A stretch of DNA of 64,000 nucleotides. Source: Octopus vulgaris. Its lineage: Eukaryota. Position numbers and translations under genes: made by a program. The DNA is taken from the NCBI GenBank assembly GCA_951406725.2, contig OX597828.1:58404001-58468000 (forward strand), given 5' to 3'. Under the pieces are notes generated by a model. The model was given only the letters and a program-made list of their open reading frames with translations, had not been told where the DNA came from and ran no database searches. Positions 2,230-61,451 of the stretch are shown here, piece after piece (positions within the stretch are counted from its first letter, which is position 1; every line of letters begins with the position of its first letter).

Positions 2230-2604
2230 GGTGCAGGAGTGGCTGTGTGGTAAGTGGTTTGCTTACCAACCACATGGTCATGGGTTCAGTCCCACTGCAT
2301 GGCACCTTGGGCAAGTGTCTCCTACTATAGCCTCGGGCCAACCAAAACCTTGAGTGGATTTGGTAGATGGAAACTGGAAGAAGCCTGTTGTGTGTGTGTG
2401 TGTATGCTTGTGTGTCTGTGTTTGTCCCCCCAACATCGTTTGACAACCGATGCTGGTGTGCTTATGTCTCCGGTTCGGCAAAAGAAACTGATAGAATAAG
2501 TACTAGCCTTACAAACAATAAGCTCTGGCGTCGATTTGCTCAGCTAAAGGCGGTACTCCAGCATGGCCGCAGTCAAATGACTGAAACAAGTAAAAGAATA
2601 AAAG
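2230..2604 (+). mobile_element. tRNA-derived SINE, family A, full length
   Basis: A/B-box-like head (TGGCTGTGTGG, GGTTCAGTCCC), internal (GT)n, 3' end ...CAGTCAAATGACTGAAACAAGTAAAAGA. Other copies or fragments near 300-420, 1475-1630, 6225-6372, 8705-9060, 14435-14840, 16195-16510, 24221-24868, 40455-40600, 49225-49350, 56740-56880, 57620-57815 and 58115-58230. Confidence 0.9.
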
Positions 2605-3930
2605 TAGTTACAGAATAATTTAAACATTGTTGAAGTTGAACCAAAGCCTTTTTGAGATTCAAAAGACATGGGTAAGAATTTGAATACAACTGCTTCAAAT
2701 TATTTCTATATTTGCATTATCGTAATGAGACCTATGTCCTTTCTTTCATTAAAATAGCTAGAAAATTGTTAATTACAAAATCTATTTTAGTGACAAAACC
2801 TGGGGAAATAATTATCACTGAAGATATTTAATAAAATCTGTGATGAGTTGGTGGCTCTTACATCATCATTTAATGTGTGTGTTTCATGCTGGCATGGGTT
2901 GGTTAGTTGGTTTGACAGCATCTTACAAGTCAAAGGATTCTGCCAAGCTCTATGCTTCGGCATGGTTTCCTAACACCAACCCTTTTTACAGAATATACTG
3001 GGTGTTTTTCTACACGGCAGTGGCACCAGTGAAGTCACCAAGAAACTCGCAAGACAAGATTCCTCAACTTGGTTGGGTACAGTATTGAAGAAGATGGCTT
3101 TATGTGAGGTAATGAGAGGTTAAAGTATGACAGAGGGACAGAAACAGGCATCTTGCTGTACAAGAGGTACATGTTTACTCCGGTTGGAAAAGAGAGATGG
3201 TCGTGAAGACATCTCATGGGTGACCTTACATAAATTTGTGACGGAAGTTCTAATTTTGCCATGAGGGGCAGAAGTTTTCGCACTCTGGTTACCTCTTTCT
3301 ACTACAGCTATCAGCAACCAGAATCTGCAGACTCACAGAAATAGACTGGATTATGGAAAGAATAAAACATACCTTAATTGCCACACTATGTCACCATACA
3401 ATTAACCACTGCATGTCAGTGCATGCAGTATGGATGCCCAGCTTGGTGAACACATAACTGGAACAATAGTTTTGTGGGATGCACCTAATCTTTCAGCTGA
3501 CTACCTGTTGTCTATTACAGGTGTTTTCAGAGCTACTTTAGACCTCAGAAGATTTTACCATAGTCACCTGAACTGAAAGATTGCTGTTGCTTTGTTGTCA
3601 AGGTTGTTTTAATGGAAGTTTTATATTATAACTAGAGTTGAAGTAGCAGAAGAACTTTGGCTTCAATTGACTTCAGATTTGAAACCAGTGGGAAGAACTC
3701 GGCTATGAGGACTTTGCCTTGGCCAAGTTTGTTTTGAGTAATCTTCCATTCCACTTGGTTCTATTGTTCTACATTGGAAATGCTGCTCCACTGGAAACCC
3801 ATCATTGTTATCAACAGGTGTTACAAATTATATTCACCAATACATCATTATTAGCATTATATCTAACAACTGTTTGTAATCTGCTGATATGAATCGGTTA
3901 GGTTTACAATTTATAGCATATTAACATATA

Positions 3931-13133: not shown

Positions 13134-13365
13134 GGCGGAGAGCTGGCAGAGTGGTTAGCACACCGGGCAAAATGCTTAGTGGTATTTCGTCTGCTGTTAC
13201 GTTCTGAGTTCAAATTCTGCCGAGGTCGACTTTGCCTTTCATCCTTTCGGGGTCGATAAATTAAGTACCAGTTACGCACTGGGGTCGATGTAATCGACTT
13301 AATCCATTTGTCTGTCCTTGTTTGTCCCCTCTATGTTTAGCCCCTTGTGGGCAATAAAGAAATAA
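13134..13365 (+). mobile_element. tRNA-derived SINE, family B (Nin/Deu-like central domain)
   Basis: GGCGGAGAGCTGGCAGA head, B box GAGTTCAAATTC, GCCTTTCATCCTTTCGGGGTCGATAAATTAAGTACCAG core; near-identical copies elsewhere in the window. Confidence 0.9.
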
Positions 13366-17030: not shown

Positions 17031-17308
17031 ATATATATATATATATATATATACTCTGTTATGAAGATAAATGTTCTATTAGTCAGTCAGTTGATAATCA
17101 GTGTATATATTTATATGTGCCTGTGTGTGTTGGTGATTTGTCTTGAAAGGCAATCAATGTAAATCATGGTTAGACAGGAAGTCAACAAGTTACCAAAGTC
17201 CGTTAATCCATAAACAATTTATAAATACAATACAGTTCATCTAAGTACTTTTGTTACTGCTAATAATTTTGATAATACAGTTCTATATTTAAGGGATGAG
17301 TGATAATG

Positions 17309-18657
17309 TACATTATTTACATTAGATGTATACCAATAAGAAACTTAATGGAAATGTTGACCTTCTGTGTAGAAACTACCTACTTCAGTATGGACACTGA
17401 TACATATCGACAAGAAGAGGGTTTAGCTTTGGGTTCGCCATTATCACCGATAATAGCCAATATATACATGGAATACTTTGAGAATTTGGTTTTAGGATCA
17501 ACACCACTAAAACCAACCCTATGGCTGTGATATGTTGATGACACCTTTATACTCTGGCCCCACCAGGAAGATGTCCAAGTGCTGTTAGATCGTGTGAACT
17601 CAATAAAGCCATCCATGCAGTTCACAATGGAAAAGGAAAAAGACAATCAGCAAGCATTCCTGGACGCACTAATAACAAGCACCACGTATGGGTTCAGGAC
17701 ATCTGTATACCGCAAACTGACCTTCACTGGATAATACCTCAACTTCAACTCCCACCATCCATACAGTGTAAAGAGAGGGATGGCTCAGTGCCTAAAACAT
17801 TGAGCAAAGAATATAAGTAGCGATCATAATACTCACCATGAAGAAGTGATCAGGCTCAGTAACAATCTATTAAGCAACAACAATCCCCGAAAACATACTC
17901 TCCACTCCAATTATGAAGAGAAGTGAGGATGAAACCGATAAACTGCCCACAGTCTGCCCACCCTATGTGAAAGGCCTCTCCGAAAAGATACAAAAGATAT
18001 GTGGCCCATATGACATCAGAACAGTATTCAAGAGTAATACAACACTTTGCAAATATCTCCTTCGAGTAAAACCATTAATAGAAGAGAATGTGACCAAAGA
18101 CTGCGTGTACTCCATCCAATGCAGTTGTGGTAGGTTATACAGAGGCGAAACATGTCGCCCCCTCAAAATAAGGGTAGAGGAACATCGCAAAGCTGTGACA
18201 CGAGGAGATATTGATAAATCGGGTACAGCTGATCATGTATGGAAAAAAGGAGACCACCTCCCCCTGTGGGATGAAGTTAAAATAATAGACAGAGAACACC
18301 ACTGGAAAATACAGAAACTAAAAGAAGCAGCACATATGCTAGGACACAACAACCTCCTAAGCAGACCAAGTGTAGATATGAATGGCATATGGGAACCGGA
18401 AGGATAGGAAAATATTAGATTTATAAGCCCTAAAATTCACTCCATAATTGCCCACAGGCATATGGCTAGTGGTTAAGAGCACAGGCTACTAACCCCAAGA
18501 TTCTGAGTTCAATTCCAGGCAGTGACCTGAATAATAATTACAATATCGAAAAATACCTTGGGAATGAGAACCCAGGTTTGGAAATTCCCCAAGACACCTG
18601 ATGAAGGCTGGAGGGTATATTAGCCGAAACATGTATCCATCAAATGTAAATAGTGTA
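17309..18657 (+). mobile_element. Penelope-like retroelement, 5'-truncated, decayed RT + GIY-YIG
   Basis: RT motifs YRQEEGLALGSPLSPIIANIYME, *YVDDTF, FTMEKE, VYRK, SHHP; endonuclease VYSIQCSCGRLYRGETCRPLKIRVEEH; several stops; 25-bp inverted terminal duplication. Confidence 0.92.
18593..18636 (+). ncRNA. Hammerhead ribozyme-like motif in the Penelope 3' end
   Basis: CTGATGA-A-GGCT(loop)AGCC-GAAA-CATGTA. Core and stem II intact, palindromic ACATGT stem III, stem I not paired in this copy. Confidence 0.65.
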
Positions 18658-19261
18658 AACATTTTGAGTTGATCAAGAATGCTAGAAACTAGAGCAGGGT
18701 TGACTTGTAATATTTTTTGATTCTTCTGATTAGTTTTCGAATTATTGTCCTGAAGTTTAGTTTTCTTCATTCTTTTGATTGATTGCTTAAATCAGTGCAC
18801 TTAGTTTTGTTTTGTTTTTTGTTTTTTTTTGTTTTTTACTAATCTCAGATTACACTAATCCTACTGAAAGTATCCTTATGTTAATCTCTTTTTCTCAAAT
18901 AATGCTTCACTGTGTGTGAGTACATGAATGAATTGTTTATGCTTTGATGAATCTGTTTAGATGTGAGTTTGTAGAATAATTTGTCTTAGCATTATTATTG
19001 ACTTAATAATATTTTATTTAAAGTGCTTATAATCAACGCTGTATGGAATGATGTAAAGCATGTTACTCGATCAGATTTCTGAATTTGTTTATCTTAAGCT
19101 ATGAATGCTGGGAAATTTACAAAGGAAGCCATTGTTGTCACCCGCAGTTCAGTGCTGTAAAACAATTCTGTCCCTTAAAATAAGTGCCAGCGTTCTTGGA
19201 TCAGTGTCAATCTACTTATTCATGTATGTTATGTGGATGCCTTTGCTGTCATTCTTCACAG

Positions 19262-19422
19262 AACCCTCCACCGGTTCAGACAAGACACACAGATGGAGGA
19301 GTTTTGTCGGCTTCAAACAGCGATTGCTCTGCTTCATCAAGGAAGCCACCAAGTGATCTAAATGCTAACAACAGACGACTTGCCAATTCAACGGAGTCTT
19401 TACCCACCATTGTGACAATGAG
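19262..19422 (+). CDS. OSBPL11: Exon 6, linker (NPPPVQTRHTDGG...LPTIVTMR)
   Basis: cacag acceptor, gtgagt donor, open frame, phase 0-2 fits both neighbours. Confidence 0.85.
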
Positions 19423-20309
19423 GTGAGTATGTATATTTATGAAGGGCTTCATTACTGCTTTATATTTATACCTTTGTGCTGTTTATGTAAGTAAGGTACA
19501 TTGTTCCACTTAACTCAGTCAGTGTAAATGTAACTAGATATTCGTTTGGCTGTTTAGGTGCTTCGAGGTAGAAGACATTCCGTTATAAAATGTTCTAATT
19601 CATGCAAAATCCAAATCTGAAGATTGTCTAAACCACAACTGTCACATTAAATCTTCTGCTCGTTTTCCAGGGGTCATGGGGTCAGTGTATAACTTATATT
19701 TCTGGAGTATTGAGAGAATGCCTTCTAGAATAATAAATGAAAAATGAAGAAAGCTTCTGACAATGCAGGAAATTCTTTTTTAAATCTTTGTATTTCGGGT
19801 GCAAAGGTCTATCTTTAGAGGGATACAGTCAAAGAAATGTGTGTCTATGTAGACCCTGTCGTCTTGAATAGCTGGATGGGCAGTGACCTTGTTTTAGTTT
19901 GGTGCTTGTAGCAGTAGCTTCCCAAGTGATGGTGTTAATGGTGCTGTGTCATAAAGGTCACACTGAGGACAGTGGTGCCATGCCATAGAGGTCACACTGG
20001 GGACAGTGGCTGTGGGTTGGTGGCGAGTGCCATGGTAGTAGTTGGTGGTCGTAATAACAGTAAATGTTGTGGTAGCAGTCAGTGATGGTTTTGTCTACAT
20101 CGGCATAGTTGGTGATGGCATTGGTGGTGTATGTTCTTGTAATAGGCATTGACATGGTAGTAGCTGTCAACAGCAACATTTCTCATTGCAATGGAAGCTG
20201 TGGTAGTGACAAATAAGGGGCTGATAGGCAACAGTGCTGATCACCGTCATAGAGGTGAAGATGCTAGTTGTGGTTGCAGTGATGCAGGGGTCAGTTTGTA
20301 ATATATTTA

Positions 20310-32839: not shown

Positions 32840-33590
32840 GAAGGTGCATAGCTCAGTGGTTAGTGTCGGGTTCACAATCATAAGGTAGTGAGTTCAATTT
32901 ATGGACCGGGCTGTGTGTTGTGTTCTTGAGCAAGACTCTTCATTTCGTGTTGCTCCAGTTCATTCAGCTGTAGAAATGAGTTGTGACATCTCTGGTGCCA
33001 GGCTGTATCAGTCCCTTTTGCCTTTCTCTTGGATAATATCAATGGCTGGTATGCATGGGCAGCTGCTGGTCTTCCATAAACCACCTTGCCTAGACTTGTG
33101 CCTTGAAGGGCAACTTTCAAGAATTTGTCTTAAGAAGAAAGGCTGAAGACGCTCGACCTTTATTCTTTAGAAAAACAACGACGCCGTGGTGATCTCATTC
33201 TCGCTCACAACATTATAAGCGGAAAGTGTAACCTCTCGAAAGAGCTGTTCTTCACTCCTGCTCCAGAGCGTCGGCTGCGGGGTCACTCCGAAAAGCTCTA
33301 TCTGCGACGATTTCATCTCAATCGAAGGAGAGGGGCTTTCTCCGTCCGGGTTGCGGATCCGTGGAATAAGCTGCCGGACGAGATGATGAAGATGCCGACG
33401 ACTGCTCAGTTCAAAGTCTCTCTTGACCAGAAATGGCCTGAACTCTTTGCATGAACACTACCCTGTACATAACTCCATGTCCCCCTACATGGCCTTGCTT
33501 TTTGCTTTTTGAACCAAATAATTAACTTAACTTAACTTTCTAGTTGCAATCCCATGGTTATTCATGACTGAAGGAGATTCTTACCCTTTT
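32840..33590 (+). mobile_element. tRNA-derived SINE family C (Meta-domain-like), interrupted by a LINE
   Basis: TAGCTCAGTGG A box, GAGTTCAATT B box, CTTGAGCAAGAC...CAGCTGTAGAAATGAGT core. A copy without the insert is at ~53627-53925; another is at ~43765-44130. Confidence 0.8.
33119..33533 (+). mobile_element. Second CR1/L2-type LINE 3' fragment with (TAACT)n tail
   Basis: EERLKTLDLYSLEKQRRRGDLILAHNII...RGHSEKL...FSVRVADPWNKLP...FKVSLD; TSD AACTTTC at 33112-33118 and 33534-33540. Confidence 0.88.
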
Positions 33591-34407: not shown

Positions 34408-37253
34408 GTAATTTTCACTTCTATTTACAAAATATTATTCTGTATTAACTCTGCTTTATAATTTTCTCTTGACAGAGTAGATAAAACTAATTATTTTGTT
34501 TTAATAGTTTTTATTATTTGCTTGTTTCATGTCCTTAATATTTCGATATATACAGACATAGCAAAGATCAAAAGTTCAACTCACACTCTGATTCATCAAA
34601 GTATTTGACCAACACATTCATGCCATTACTTGCCCGTCTTTTTCTCTATCTTTTCTCCATATACTTTGTCCTGGACTTCAATATCCAATATGTCCTTTTT
34701 TATATAAAAATAAGACTGTGTACTTTATGGGGAATTCAGTTGATTTTTCTAGTAGTCCCCTACAGGCCCCTTCATTGGCCTAAGAAACTTATGTTAACCT
34801 GCAATTTTATTTAAATATCTGATAAATGGAATTTGAAAAAAAACAGAAGATACTTTCTAAAAAATAACATGCAGCCTAAAGAATTCTACAGGGTCCCTAA
34901 AAGATGCAGATAATTACTAGTCATTCTTAACAGTACTGGTGTGTTTAAATGGCTATAAAATAGAATGATTTTAATTAGAAAACTAATAATACTGTAGCTT
35001 GAGAAAAAATCTGTATGCTTTTTGTTGAAATACTGGTATAATTAATGTATGACTTCCACAATCACTTACTAACGCCTCAGTCAGGCAGCCCCTTTGTGGT
35101 TGCAATACTTTGCTAGAAATATTAGCTAAGTCTCTTTTAAATTATATATCACCGTCTGCGTTTTAAAAATTGCATTAGATAATGTCCAGGGTATCTGAAA
35201 AAGAAAAGAAAGATGAAGTGGCCTGGGACAGACACTCTTTGATTATAGGTATACTCAGCCAAGACTGACCTGTAGCTAAAGAACAGTGCTCACCACCAAG
35301 TAAACTCTCTCTAAGCCATTTAGTTCCAACTTCTCTGATACCAGATGTCTGTGTGAGAAAACAGTTTCTAGTGCTGTGTATGTTGGGTTGTGATGAGCCA
35401 GAAGTCGATTTCTCATAACTGATTCAGTGCTTTACATTCCTCAGAAGAACTGATGCTGAAAACTTTGCATTTCATCTTTCTGAAAAACTTATTCAAGTGT
35501 TATGTATGGTTCACTCTATGGAGCTAAAATCTGGATATTAACAGGAGTATCAGCATTGTTTTCTTTCTTTTCTTTTTGCTTGCTGCCTGGTGTGCATTCC
35601 ACCCCTATGGATGCATTCCAGTTACTCTCTTGATAGAGTTTGGTGATCCTTACCATTAGTCTTCTAGGATCCCTCTGCTCAGCCTCAGTGTAAGAAGCAC
35701 CTCTATCTCAGTTCAGCTCTTCATGATCCACCATGCTGCAGTTCCATGGCTTCGTTGTATTCCTGGCAGAGTGGCAAATAGATGAGTGCATGTAGAAGTC
35801 TTTAGAGAATATTATGGACAAAACTCAAAACCAGTGATGAAGAACTAAGAATAGCAACAACTACAAATTCTGTGTATAATTAGAGTGAAGACTAAAATAT
35901 TTTGACCATTTTAATTTGCTTTTAATGGCTTATTGATTCCAGAAGCTATGAAGAGAAGCTAAAATTGCTCAAAAAGGAGGAAAAGAATTCTCTGATGGAT
36001 AATATCAAGAATTGGACAGATTTAAAAATACACTGTTAGGGAAGGCATACAACCATAGAAACTATGCCAAAACACTGGAGCACAACGCGCCTTTGGACCT
36101 GTCAGATTCCGTCAAACTGTCCAACTCATGCCAGCATGAAACACAGATATTACATGATGATGAACACAAGAAAGATGATGATTCATGGTGTTCAATCTGC
36201 TGACAGAGGACTTTGTCATCATCATCGTTTAACGTCCGTTCTCCATGCTAGCATGGGTTGGACGGTTTGACCGGGGTCTGGGAAACCAGGAGGCTGCACC
36301 AGGCCCAGTCTGATCTGGCAGTGTTTCTACAGCTGGATGCCCTTCCTAACGCCAACCACTCTGTGAGTGTAGTAGGTGCTTTTTACATGCCACCGGCACA
36401 GGTGCCAGGGGAGGCTGGCAACGGCCACAATCGGATTGGTGAATCCTTAAAAGCATGGACAATACTTGATTATGTGAAAATTATACAAATAACAGTTATT
36501 GTGTGTATGGAATACTTGTGTCAATGAAATTCTTTTTGAAGGGTGTGTGAACAGGTAAATGGAAGGAGGAAAAGGAATGGTAAAATTTATTAGAATGTAC
36601 AAATTCTTGAGCCTGTGGCACCTTGTTTATAAAGGCTCAACATTGTAGAACTTCTTCAGCTAAACTTTGCCATATTTAATCATTGTTGTATGATTTAAGC
36701 TCAGGAGAAAAGGCATCCTCCAAAGACCTGATAGCAAGGAAAGAGAGGAAGAAACTTTGGTATTTTCTGCAACTCTATGAAGTAGATGAGGTGTAAACAT
36801 TCAAACATCATAACAATCTTTCCAAATCCTGCTGCATTTCACCTGGAAATTTTGGTCCTCCAAAGTTATCTTGGGGTATAAGTCAACTTACTTTAATTGG
36901 CTGTAAATTTTGATCTGAAAAATTGGACATGTATGCTGAAAATATATCGGACAAGTCATTGGTTACTGCAGTGAGAGGCAATCTTTGAGAGCCAGCCTGC
37001 TCTGAATGCTTGCAACAGGGTGTACTTAGCTACAATTCATTGAAATGTGATGATGGTGGTGGTGTTGGTGGTGGTGGACTTGATTGTCAACACAAAACAC
37101 TCTTTCAGCCATAATTCAATATCTCTTCACATCACACGACTACACCAGTGAAAAGTAATTTCCTCCTGCATGCATTGATTGTTACATTTTGGACATACCT
37201 GTGTGTGTGTGTGTGTGTGTGTTGATTGATTTTTCTTATTTTTATTCTTCCAG

Positions 37254-37800: not shown

Positions 37801-38395
37801 TTATAACCATGGCTACAGTAGCAGTATTATAGACTCTTGGTAATTTTACTGTAACCATGGCTACAGTCGCATTATTAAAAACTCTTGGTAATTTTACTGT
37901 AACCATGGCTACAGTCGCATTATTAAAGACTCTTGGTAATTTTACTGTAACCATGGTTACAGCAGCATTATTATAGACTGTTGGTAATTTTACTGTAACC
38001 ATGGCTACAGTCGCATTATTAAAGACTCATGGTAATTTTACTGTAACCATGGCTACAGTCGCATTATTAAAGACTCATGGTAATTTTACTGTAACCATGG
38101 CTACAGTCGCATTATTAAAGACTCATGGTAATTTTACTGTAACCATGGCTACAGTCGCATTATTAAAGACTCTTGGTAATTTTACTGTAACCAATGTTAC
38201 AGTAGCATTTAGATTATTAGTTTTCTGTTGTAACTATGGTTACAGAAGCGCTATTACAGATGATAGGTAATCTGTTGTAACCATGGCTACAGGAGTGATA
38301 TTGGTCTCTTGTTACTATGACTATGGTAGCAATATTATATAGACTGTCTGTTGTAACCATGACTACAATAGCAATACCACAGACTGTTGGTAGAC
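37801..38395. repeat. 48-bp minisatellite, ~8 conserved + ~4 degenerate units
   Basis: Unit CTGTAACCATGGCTACAGTCGCATTATTAAAGACTC(A/T)TGGTAATTTTA; explains the 16-aa periodic ORFs on both strands. Confidence 0.95.
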
Positions 38396-45000: not shown

Positions 45001-45392
45001 CGTGGCTGTGTGGTAAGTAGCTTGCTAACCAACCACATGGTTGTGGGTTCAGTCCCACTGCGTGGCATCCTGGGCAAGTGTCTTCTGCTATAGCCCCGGG
45101 CCGACCAAAGCCTTGTGAGTGGATTTGGTAGACGGAAACTGAAAGAAGCCTGTCGTATATATATATGTGTGTGTGTTTGTGTGTCTGTGTTTGTCCCCCT
45201 AGCATTGCTTGACAACCGATGCTGGTGTGTCTACGTCCCCGCCACTTAGCGGTTCGGCAAAAGACACCGATAGAATAAGTACTGGGCTTACAAAGAATAA
45301 GTTCCGGGGTCGATTTTCTCGACTAAAGGCGGTGCTCCAGCATGGCCGCAGTCAAATGACTGAAACAAGTAAAAGAGTAAAGAGTAAAGAGA
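45001..45392 (+). mobile_element. SINE family A, CpG-intact copy
   Basis: Full body and (AAAGAGT)-like tail. Confidence 0.9.
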
Positions 45393-61117: not shown

Positions 61118-61199
61118 AATTCCTGACCTTGCAGATCCTGAACAAAGGATGCTTGCGGTAGTTGAGTGGTACCTAACGTCTTTCCATGCTGGCAGACAG
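61118..61199 (+). CDS. OSBPL11: Exon 14 (IPDLADPEQRMLAVVEWYLTSFHAGRQ)
   Basis: gtcag acceptor, gtaagg donor, phase 2-0; YLTSFH motif. Confidence 0.95.
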
Positions 61200-61416
61200 G
61201 TAAGGAAACTCTCCCTCACTCCCCCACTATCTCTCAACATACACACACACACACACACATATGATTGATTTTGATTTTGATTTTTGATTTTTGATTTTTC
61301 CAGTTTCAGCTAATGAGCTGTGGCCATGCTGGGGCACCGCCATTTGGTTTGCTACATGATTTTACCTCACGAATGCTTTTTAGCAACTGCCATTTGGTGC
61401 ATACATATGCATATAT

Positions 61417-61451
61417 ATATCTGACGAAGAGCTCTGCTCGAAACGTTAAAT
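61417..61451 (+). ncRNA. Minimal type I hammerhead ribozyme motif
   Basis: CTGACGA-A-GAGC-TCT-GCTC-GAAA-CGTT: intact core, perfect 4-bp stem II, palindromic ACGT stem III, GUU triplet; stem I 3/4 (ATAT/AAAT). Confidence 0.7.

Follow-up and report, generated by a model that had tools for sequence, protein, structure and literature searches.

A tRNA-like unit with A and B boxes stands at the start of the pLTR of an octopus Penelope-like element (PLE), just behind the likely end of the ORF and upstream of a predicted hammerhead motif, and comparison with related copies supports the view that this head belongs to the PLE family and is built into its pLTR. We give about even odds (roughly 0.5) to the reading that the head acts as a Pol III promoter, making the pLTR a SINE-like unit that would be copied by the PLE's own reverse transcriptase (RT). 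The copy itself, at 17273-18660 of the window (the whole 64-kb stretch of DNA that was analysed), is a dead, decayed and 5'-truncated member of a high-copy family. Its features, in window coordinates, are as follows.

17266-17272, + strand: left target-site duplication, 7 bp, ATTTTGA (sole 7-mer common to both boundaries)
17273-17333, - strand: 3' tail of the element in inverted copy (25 nt at 88 % on the opposite strand)
17327-17873, + strand: 5'-truncated RT part with YVDD motif and three in-frame stops (translation)
17874-18426, + strand: linker and C-terminal endonuclease part, probably of GIY-YIG type (P0015 and relatives)
18449-18460: short hairpin (TGCCC, loop AC, complement) where the pLTR likely begins at its 5' side; lengthened into a larger palindrome in copies starting there
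18456-18530, + strand: tRNA-like head (box patterns), with tRNA position +1 at 18456
18463-18472, + strand: A box (pattern), within the head
18486-18492, + strand: anticodon-like loop CTACTAA, within the head
18505-18516, + strand: B box (pattern), within the head
18531-18592, + strand: linker, opening with a short (AAT)n run whose length varies in the family
18593-18632, + strand: minimal type I hammerhead, incomplete in this copy (motif pattern and family continuation)
18593-18597, + strand: hammerhead stem I, 5' strand, GACAC
18598-18604, + strand: hammerhead core CTGATGA, with an extra unpaired A next to it, before stem II
18606-18625, + strand: hammerhead stem II
18626-18630, + strand: GAAAC (GAAA at 18626-18629)
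18633-18660, + strand: 3' end of the pLTR, behind a deletion of ~30 nt or more (family coverage)
18661-18667, + strand: right target-site duplication, ATTTTGA, containing a T4 run (boundary comparison)

Other copies of the family were compared by alignment on 17850-18749 at 80 % likeness, using four of 24 listed sequencing runs, which carried three species labels. These comprised contigs of organisms A, D and E (runs X1, X7 and X8) and raw RNA reads of E (run X24), with 25,079, 11,769, 22,489 and 8,118 records aligned, respectively; X1 may be the window's own source.

Insertion and coding part

A 7-mer target duplication of the kind that bounds the element is expected by chance in about 1 % of random window pairs. 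Within the inverted left piece, ~25 nt match 18633-18657 and ~36 nt extend past the right-hand end; given the position of the target duplication, these extra ~36 nt are probably element sequence as well. The inverted end, the 30-40 bp tail and the short target duplication found at 17266-18667 are traits of EN+ PLEs, for which a one-sided tail of 30-40 bp and inverted ends have been described (PMC3846280, PMC8557442). The purified PAc protein is described as cutting preferentially at ATT. Family coverage in the four runs collapses after 18630 and is about zero after 18660. No second copy of the family was found within the 64-kb window. Two + strand stretches (19260-19424 and 61126-61200) resemble host-gene coding exons by eye, each followed by a GT donor, and the element may therefore sit in an intron.

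The RT part shared 69 % identity over 67 aa with P0015, an 806-aa relative. Its match to the RVT_1 profile was weak (E 7e-4, under the cut-off) and telomerase RT was among the profile matches; its assignment as a PLE-type RT comes through the identity to P0015 and through the nearest protein-atlas clusters of P0015, which are eukaryotic DUF8422/RVT_1/HTH_animal clusters (0.97-0.98). The endonuclease part was 70 % identical to residues 625-798 of P0015, and eight relatives out of 204 candidates were found at 61-70 % identity. No match in Pfam or NCBIfam named the C-terminal domain as GIY-YIG; among the atlas clusters of P0015 the label forms the name of the top cluster and is carried by 27 % of the members of another, and the C-terminal endonuclease contains what we take to be the GIY-YIG motif. 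The original prediction had a GIY-YIG frame stopping ~50 nt before the head. The frame of the window copy is indeed closed by TAG at 18405-18407, but this stop follows an 8-nt indel at 18397 relative to other family copies, so that TAA 18424-18426, which leaves ~30 nt to the head, is the likely end of the family ORF, and the GIY-YIG label is owed to relatives and to the motif.

Protein alignment against genome, viral and metagenome contig collections gave 128, 65 and 49 candidate related loci, respectively, none of which was confirmed. An ORF read from the ATG of the hammerhead, as in PAc, had no match to the N-termini of P0015, P0022 or P0025.

tRNA-like head and hammerhead

The A box, the CTACTAA loop, the B box, CTGATGA, GAAA, the first T4 run and the stop of the endonuclease frame all lie where the original prediction had put them. 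The strict pair of A and B boxes occurs once in the 64-kb window (18463-18516), compared with 0.01 times per shuffled 64 kb, and none of 200 shuffles contained a loose pair with a hammerhead core in the 150 nt behind it, the patterns used in these tests having been composed after the site was seen. A and B boxes at tRNA spacing are a trait of tRNA-derived SINEs; the LINE-derived tail and own target duplication of such SINEs are absent at the site, where the 3' part is a PLE pLTR. In the family the boxes are nearer to consensus than in the window copy, with one extra base after 18466 and G at 18511.

What had been called tRNA-like is borne out by boxes that exceed chance, but not by the fold. 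The head of the window copy folds no better than its shuffles (z 0.21), ARAGORN reported nothing on this copy down to 70 % of its threshold and a distorted pseudogene only at 60 %, and Rfam called neither a tRNA nor a hammerhead there. No usable cloverleaf was called by the tRNA finders, which were run on the window copy alone, and since the boxes are present with neither a cloverleaf fold nor such a call, the head is best described as a promoter-like relic and not as a tRNA gene. Inspection by eye shows some acceptor-stem pairing retained in the family; the T arm contains mismatches. The head may resemble tRNA-Thr; a search for a parent tRNA in phage gave three chance matches. Within the linker, 18574-18590 resembles a partial second B box in most family copies, with variants at 18579, 18581 and 18584.

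Behind 18630 the family continues with GTT and then GTGTT in at least 232, 174 and 245 contigs of the three contig runs and in at least 877 RNA reads. The GTGTT pairs with GACAC to form a stem I of 5 bp, so that the pairable stem on which the predicted hammerhead depended is present in the family. Helix III is the palindrome ACGT, and position 18621 is C in 97-99 % of the depth, which closes a 5-bp stem II. Judged by eye, the family has the core boxes, the extra base, G10.1-C11.1, the palindromic 15.2-16.2 and the stem I of 4-5 bp that are given for the minimal hammerheads of PLEs (PMC4209133), and its pLTR carries a complete minimal type I hammerhead pattern. These features are incomplete in the window copy, where a loss of ~30 nt or more, running from the cleavage triplet onward, has taken the triplet and stem I's 3' strand, and stem I therefore cannot form. 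The proposed ribozyme is thus intact as a pattern in the family and broken at the site where it was first noticed. Minimal hammerheads of PLEs are described as cleaving weakly, as dimers (PMC4209133), and the PLE protein as helping the cleavage (PMC11167929). An exact 23-nt hammerhead pattern had no match in genome, viral and metagenome contigs.

The deletion in the pLTR begins (window 18630-18634) within 1-2 nt of the predicted cut of the family hammerhead, and its far end coincides with the end of the inverted left tail (17327-17333). It could be the trace of an RT that jumped across cleaved RNA, a post hoc reading of one copy. Elsewhere in the window, a second minimal hammerhead core with a stem II of 4 bp (GAAACGTT) lies at 61421-61447, in an unrelated repeat between TA runs. 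No A or B box was found upstream of this core, which is likely a pLTR piece of another PLE family.

The first T4 run, at 18662, falls inside the right target duplication, where family coverage is about zero, and is therefore host DNA; the ~200-nt transcript that this run was originally thought to close is not supported in that form. No terminator encoded by the element was seen. The absence of T4 from the pLTR is not significant, as 63 % of shuffles likewise have none. The element as a whole has one T4 run in 1,327 nt, compared with 11 and 16 in its flanks. Depletion of T runs was considered as a Pol III signature and rejected, base composition being sufficient to account for it (mean of 1.3 in shuffles, P 0.6).

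The head and the pLTR edge in the family

Contigs that align upstream of 18466 on the ORF side and run on into the head numbered at least 87 of 25,079 in X1 and at least 55 of 11,769 in X7. Single contigs bridge the end of the ORF and the head at 18165-18463 (X1) and 18243-18466 (X8), the latter in a run for which no ORF-to-head joint was among the matches listed. Coverage across the head junction is continuous in all four runs, and no joint that cleanly skips the head was among the matches listed. The contigs of X1 and X7, which join the endonuclease end to the head, support the original prediction that the tRNA-like unit is built into the pLTR.

Depth is flat over 18270-18449 and then steps up about threefold within 60 nt at the head. 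Dividing the head bin by the average of the four body bins with the best coverage gives 2.9, 3.5 and 2.9 in the contig runs, where depth does not give copy number, and 2.7 in the RNA reads; coverage climbs further at the hammerhead (3.2- to 7.7-fold). Loose ends before 18467 occur in all four runs (at least 387, 197 and 267 contigs and at least 751 RNA reads), those at 18467 being in part alignment breaks at a 1-nt insertion. Over the nearest 18 letters the consensus of the loose ends agrees with the ORF-linked form, and beyond them the two diverge. There the three DNA runs have an 8-bp palindrome arm without mismatch, followed by a mixture of AT-rich letters (agreement 0.55-0.57); in the RNA run, the reverse complement of the start of the head is matched at 15 of 16 distal positions (by eye, and perhaps from few loci). 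The right arm of the palindrome starts at 18456, which is G in most family copies and corresponds to tRNA +1, with the T of the A box seven bases further on.

Palindromes at the 5' ends of pLTRs, read as self-priming, have been described for Adineta PLEs (PMC3846280). The coverage step and the copies beginning in a palindrome at +1 together place the likely 5' edge of the pLTR at the head. The step and the loose ends at 18467 also fit stand-alone copies starting from the head, as a pattern of coverage and not as a copy-by-copy count; an excess of solo pLTRs is normal among PLEs (PMC4209133).

In RNA the head-to-body ratio is like that in DNA, and it becomes 8.8 if the body upstream of the dominant transcript is used. 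No enrichment of the pLTR beyond copy number was seen in the RNA run, though short RNA lacking a cap would escape a fragmented cDNA library of this kind. The same run had about equal numbers of reads on each strand and no pile of RNA starts or ends, for which a cDNA library is ill suited. At 18119, at least 323 RNA reads of X24 share one foreign 5' flank (agreement 0.99); these represent a single abundant host transcript bearing a 5'-truncated copy of the PLE.

Possible mechanism, rival readings and precedents

If the head is a Pol III promoter, a tRNA or SINE head would have been acquired by an ancestor immediately downstream of the stop codon and have become the start of the pLTR. Pol III would initiate a few bases upstream of tRNA +1, at ~18449, read through the hammerhead and the tail and end at the next T run downstream. 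The PLE protein would begin cDNA synthesis within the tail, and on reaching the 5' end of the RNA the cDNA would fold back on the 5-bp hairpin and prime itself, yielding solo pLTRs arranged head to head. Cleavage by the hammerhead would require a dimer or the help of protein. Because it would separate promoter and tail, the uncut RNA would be the likely template; for PAc, reverse transcription is described as starting inside the tail, with uncut RNA as the main substrate (PMC11167929). The full-length mRNA would likely still depend on Pol II. The promoters reported for PLEs are of Pol II type (PMC2377424) or TATA/Inr-like (PMC3846280), and the characterised Drosophila Penelope promoter, a Pol II-type, LINE-like internal promoter (PMC2377424), counts against Pol III. 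More tentative than the promoter reading is the full proposal, in which the pLTR of a coding Penelope would function as a SINE cassette for Pol III, made up of tRNA promoter, hammerhead and a tail for RT start, and the element would spawn palindrome-capped solo copies via its own RT.

The head could instead be an inert relic of a captured tRNA or SINE, and the step and the palindromes a product of the GC-rich hairpin, at which an RT working on ordinary Pol II read-through RNA would stall and fold back. The RNA run, which has neither head enrichment over DNA nor strand bias, and the decayed cloverleaf are consistent with this, as are the pLTR palindromes in PLEs for which no tRNA is reported (PMC3846280) and the further rise of coverage at the hammerhead, which is expected from plain 5' truncation. 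An inert head does less to explain why the right arm of the palindrome begins exactly at tRNA +1, why the family boxes stay near consensus and why a sharp step follows the flat depth upstream, and we regard it as unlikely on balance, if the most serious rival. The coincidence of the boundary with tRNA +1 would also be expected if the unit acted as RNA, RNase P cutting a Pol II precursor at +1 and so setting the 5' end of the pLTR. The partly paired acceptor stem agrees with such a role, but the weak cloverleaf and the mismatched T arm do not, and a cut at +1 would deprive fold-back priming of the hairpin's left arm, which it requires; this reading appears quite improbable.

Transcription of the whole coding element by Pol III, with trimming by the hammerhead and cap-free translation, would find an analogue in R2, which is translated uncapped from Pol I transcripts. 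The scarcity of T4 runs in the element speaks for it at first sight, but that scarcity matches the base composition; the evidence covers the 3' part only, the 5' half being absent from this copy, and Pol III processivity is held to limit such RNAs to ~1.3 kb (PMC10886601). We consider it very unlikely. Least probable of all is a SINE that inserted in the window copy alone and is unrelated to the family. The unit is flanked by a 6-nt AT-rich repeat (18444 and 18534) and resembles the SINE-type heads resident in the window, but nothing longer than 6 nt was found as a target duplication of its own, the body behind the head matches no resident family, and the head is joined to the ORF end in other copies, through contigs in two runs, continuous coverage in all four and the want of any clean skip among the matches listed. 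An independent SINE with its own duplication, the alternative raised alongside the original prediction, is largely refuted by these comparisons.

With respect to known systems, the element is closest in its features to the Penelope/Poseidon-type EN+ PLEs (PMC4209133, PMC11167929, PMC3846280). These likewise possess an RT with a C-terminal endonuclease, a pLTR with a minimal type I hammerhead, an inverted 5' piece, a 30-40 bp tail at one end, a 7-bp duplication starting with ATT and a palindrome at the 5' end of the pLTR; the octopus pLTR differs by its head with A and B boxes. The combination of a Pol III promoter and a hammerhead is already known from Schistosoma Sm-alpha. Sm-alpha and Sj-alpha (PMC6765202, PMC2770079) are short, high-copy elements in which a tRNA-derived Pol III promoter is likewise followed by a type I hammerhead, but they are non-coding and often tandem, with a canonical hammerhead and no stated coding partner, whereas the octopus cassette is the physical 3' end of an RT-endonuclease ORF and its hammerhead is minimal. 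The arrangement, of which the original prediction knew no description, therefore has a precedent as a Pol III cassette ahead of a hammerhead. Full-text literature searches, whose coverage leaves out most subscription papers, turned up no coding PLE described with a tRNA head in its pLTR, and an existing entry in Repbase, Dfam or a deposited octopus repeat library is quite possible.

Animal non-LTR retrozymes (PMC7229834; bioRxiv 10.64898/2026.07.22.740005) are hammerhead-bearing non-coding units that have been proposed to derive from the pLTRs of PLEs. They are defined as tandem arrays yielding circular RNA, whereas the window holds a single unit. The word tRNA does not occur in the main text of bioRxiv 10.64898/2026.07.22.740005, the supplements of which may hold relevant pLTR sequences. 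Helenus and Cassandra (TRIMp3; PMC10886601) carry a small-RNA-derived Pol III promoter in a terminal repeat, proposed to have arrived via SINE insertion, but they are non-autonomous LTR elements without a hammerhead, and their autonomous partners are expected to be without such LTRs (PMC10886601).

The tRNA-derived SINEs resident in the window (heads at ~32840, 53615, 45000, 49205, 24222 and 40445) share a collinear head with A and B boxes but have diverged heads and unrelated bodies. Two of the resident repeat families have 5' ends to which the PLE head is collinear. Measured against a null drawn from the whole window, the likeness of the PLE head to these SINEs lacks significance (best score 55.5, exceeded by 1 of 15 shuffled queries), and the more favourable values of 0-1/2,000 are inflated because the targets were chosen as top matches. 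Several abundant SINE-like repeat families fill the window (2239-2606, 13140-13364, 36214-36441, 45002-45391, 32857-33121 and others), at least two of them with tRNA-like heads, and a tandem repeat with a period of ~96 nt lies at 37804-38392.

The arrangement bears on how the boundary of the pLTR is set, what the hammerhead does in PLEs and which enzyme moves hammerhead SINEs such as Sm-alpha. A stretch of ~280 nt holds the promoter boxes, the RNA 5' end, the fold-back hairpin and the ribozyme, each of which can be mutated on its own, so that a direct test is possible. For annotation it carries a warning, as some of the 'tRNA SINE' counts in such genomes may be terminal repeats of PLEs. If the Pol III reading is true, these would be SINEs driven by a Penelope enzyme instead of a LINE, and the family would offer a living model for the origin of Sm-alpha-type elements and of tRNA-bearing parasites of PLEs.
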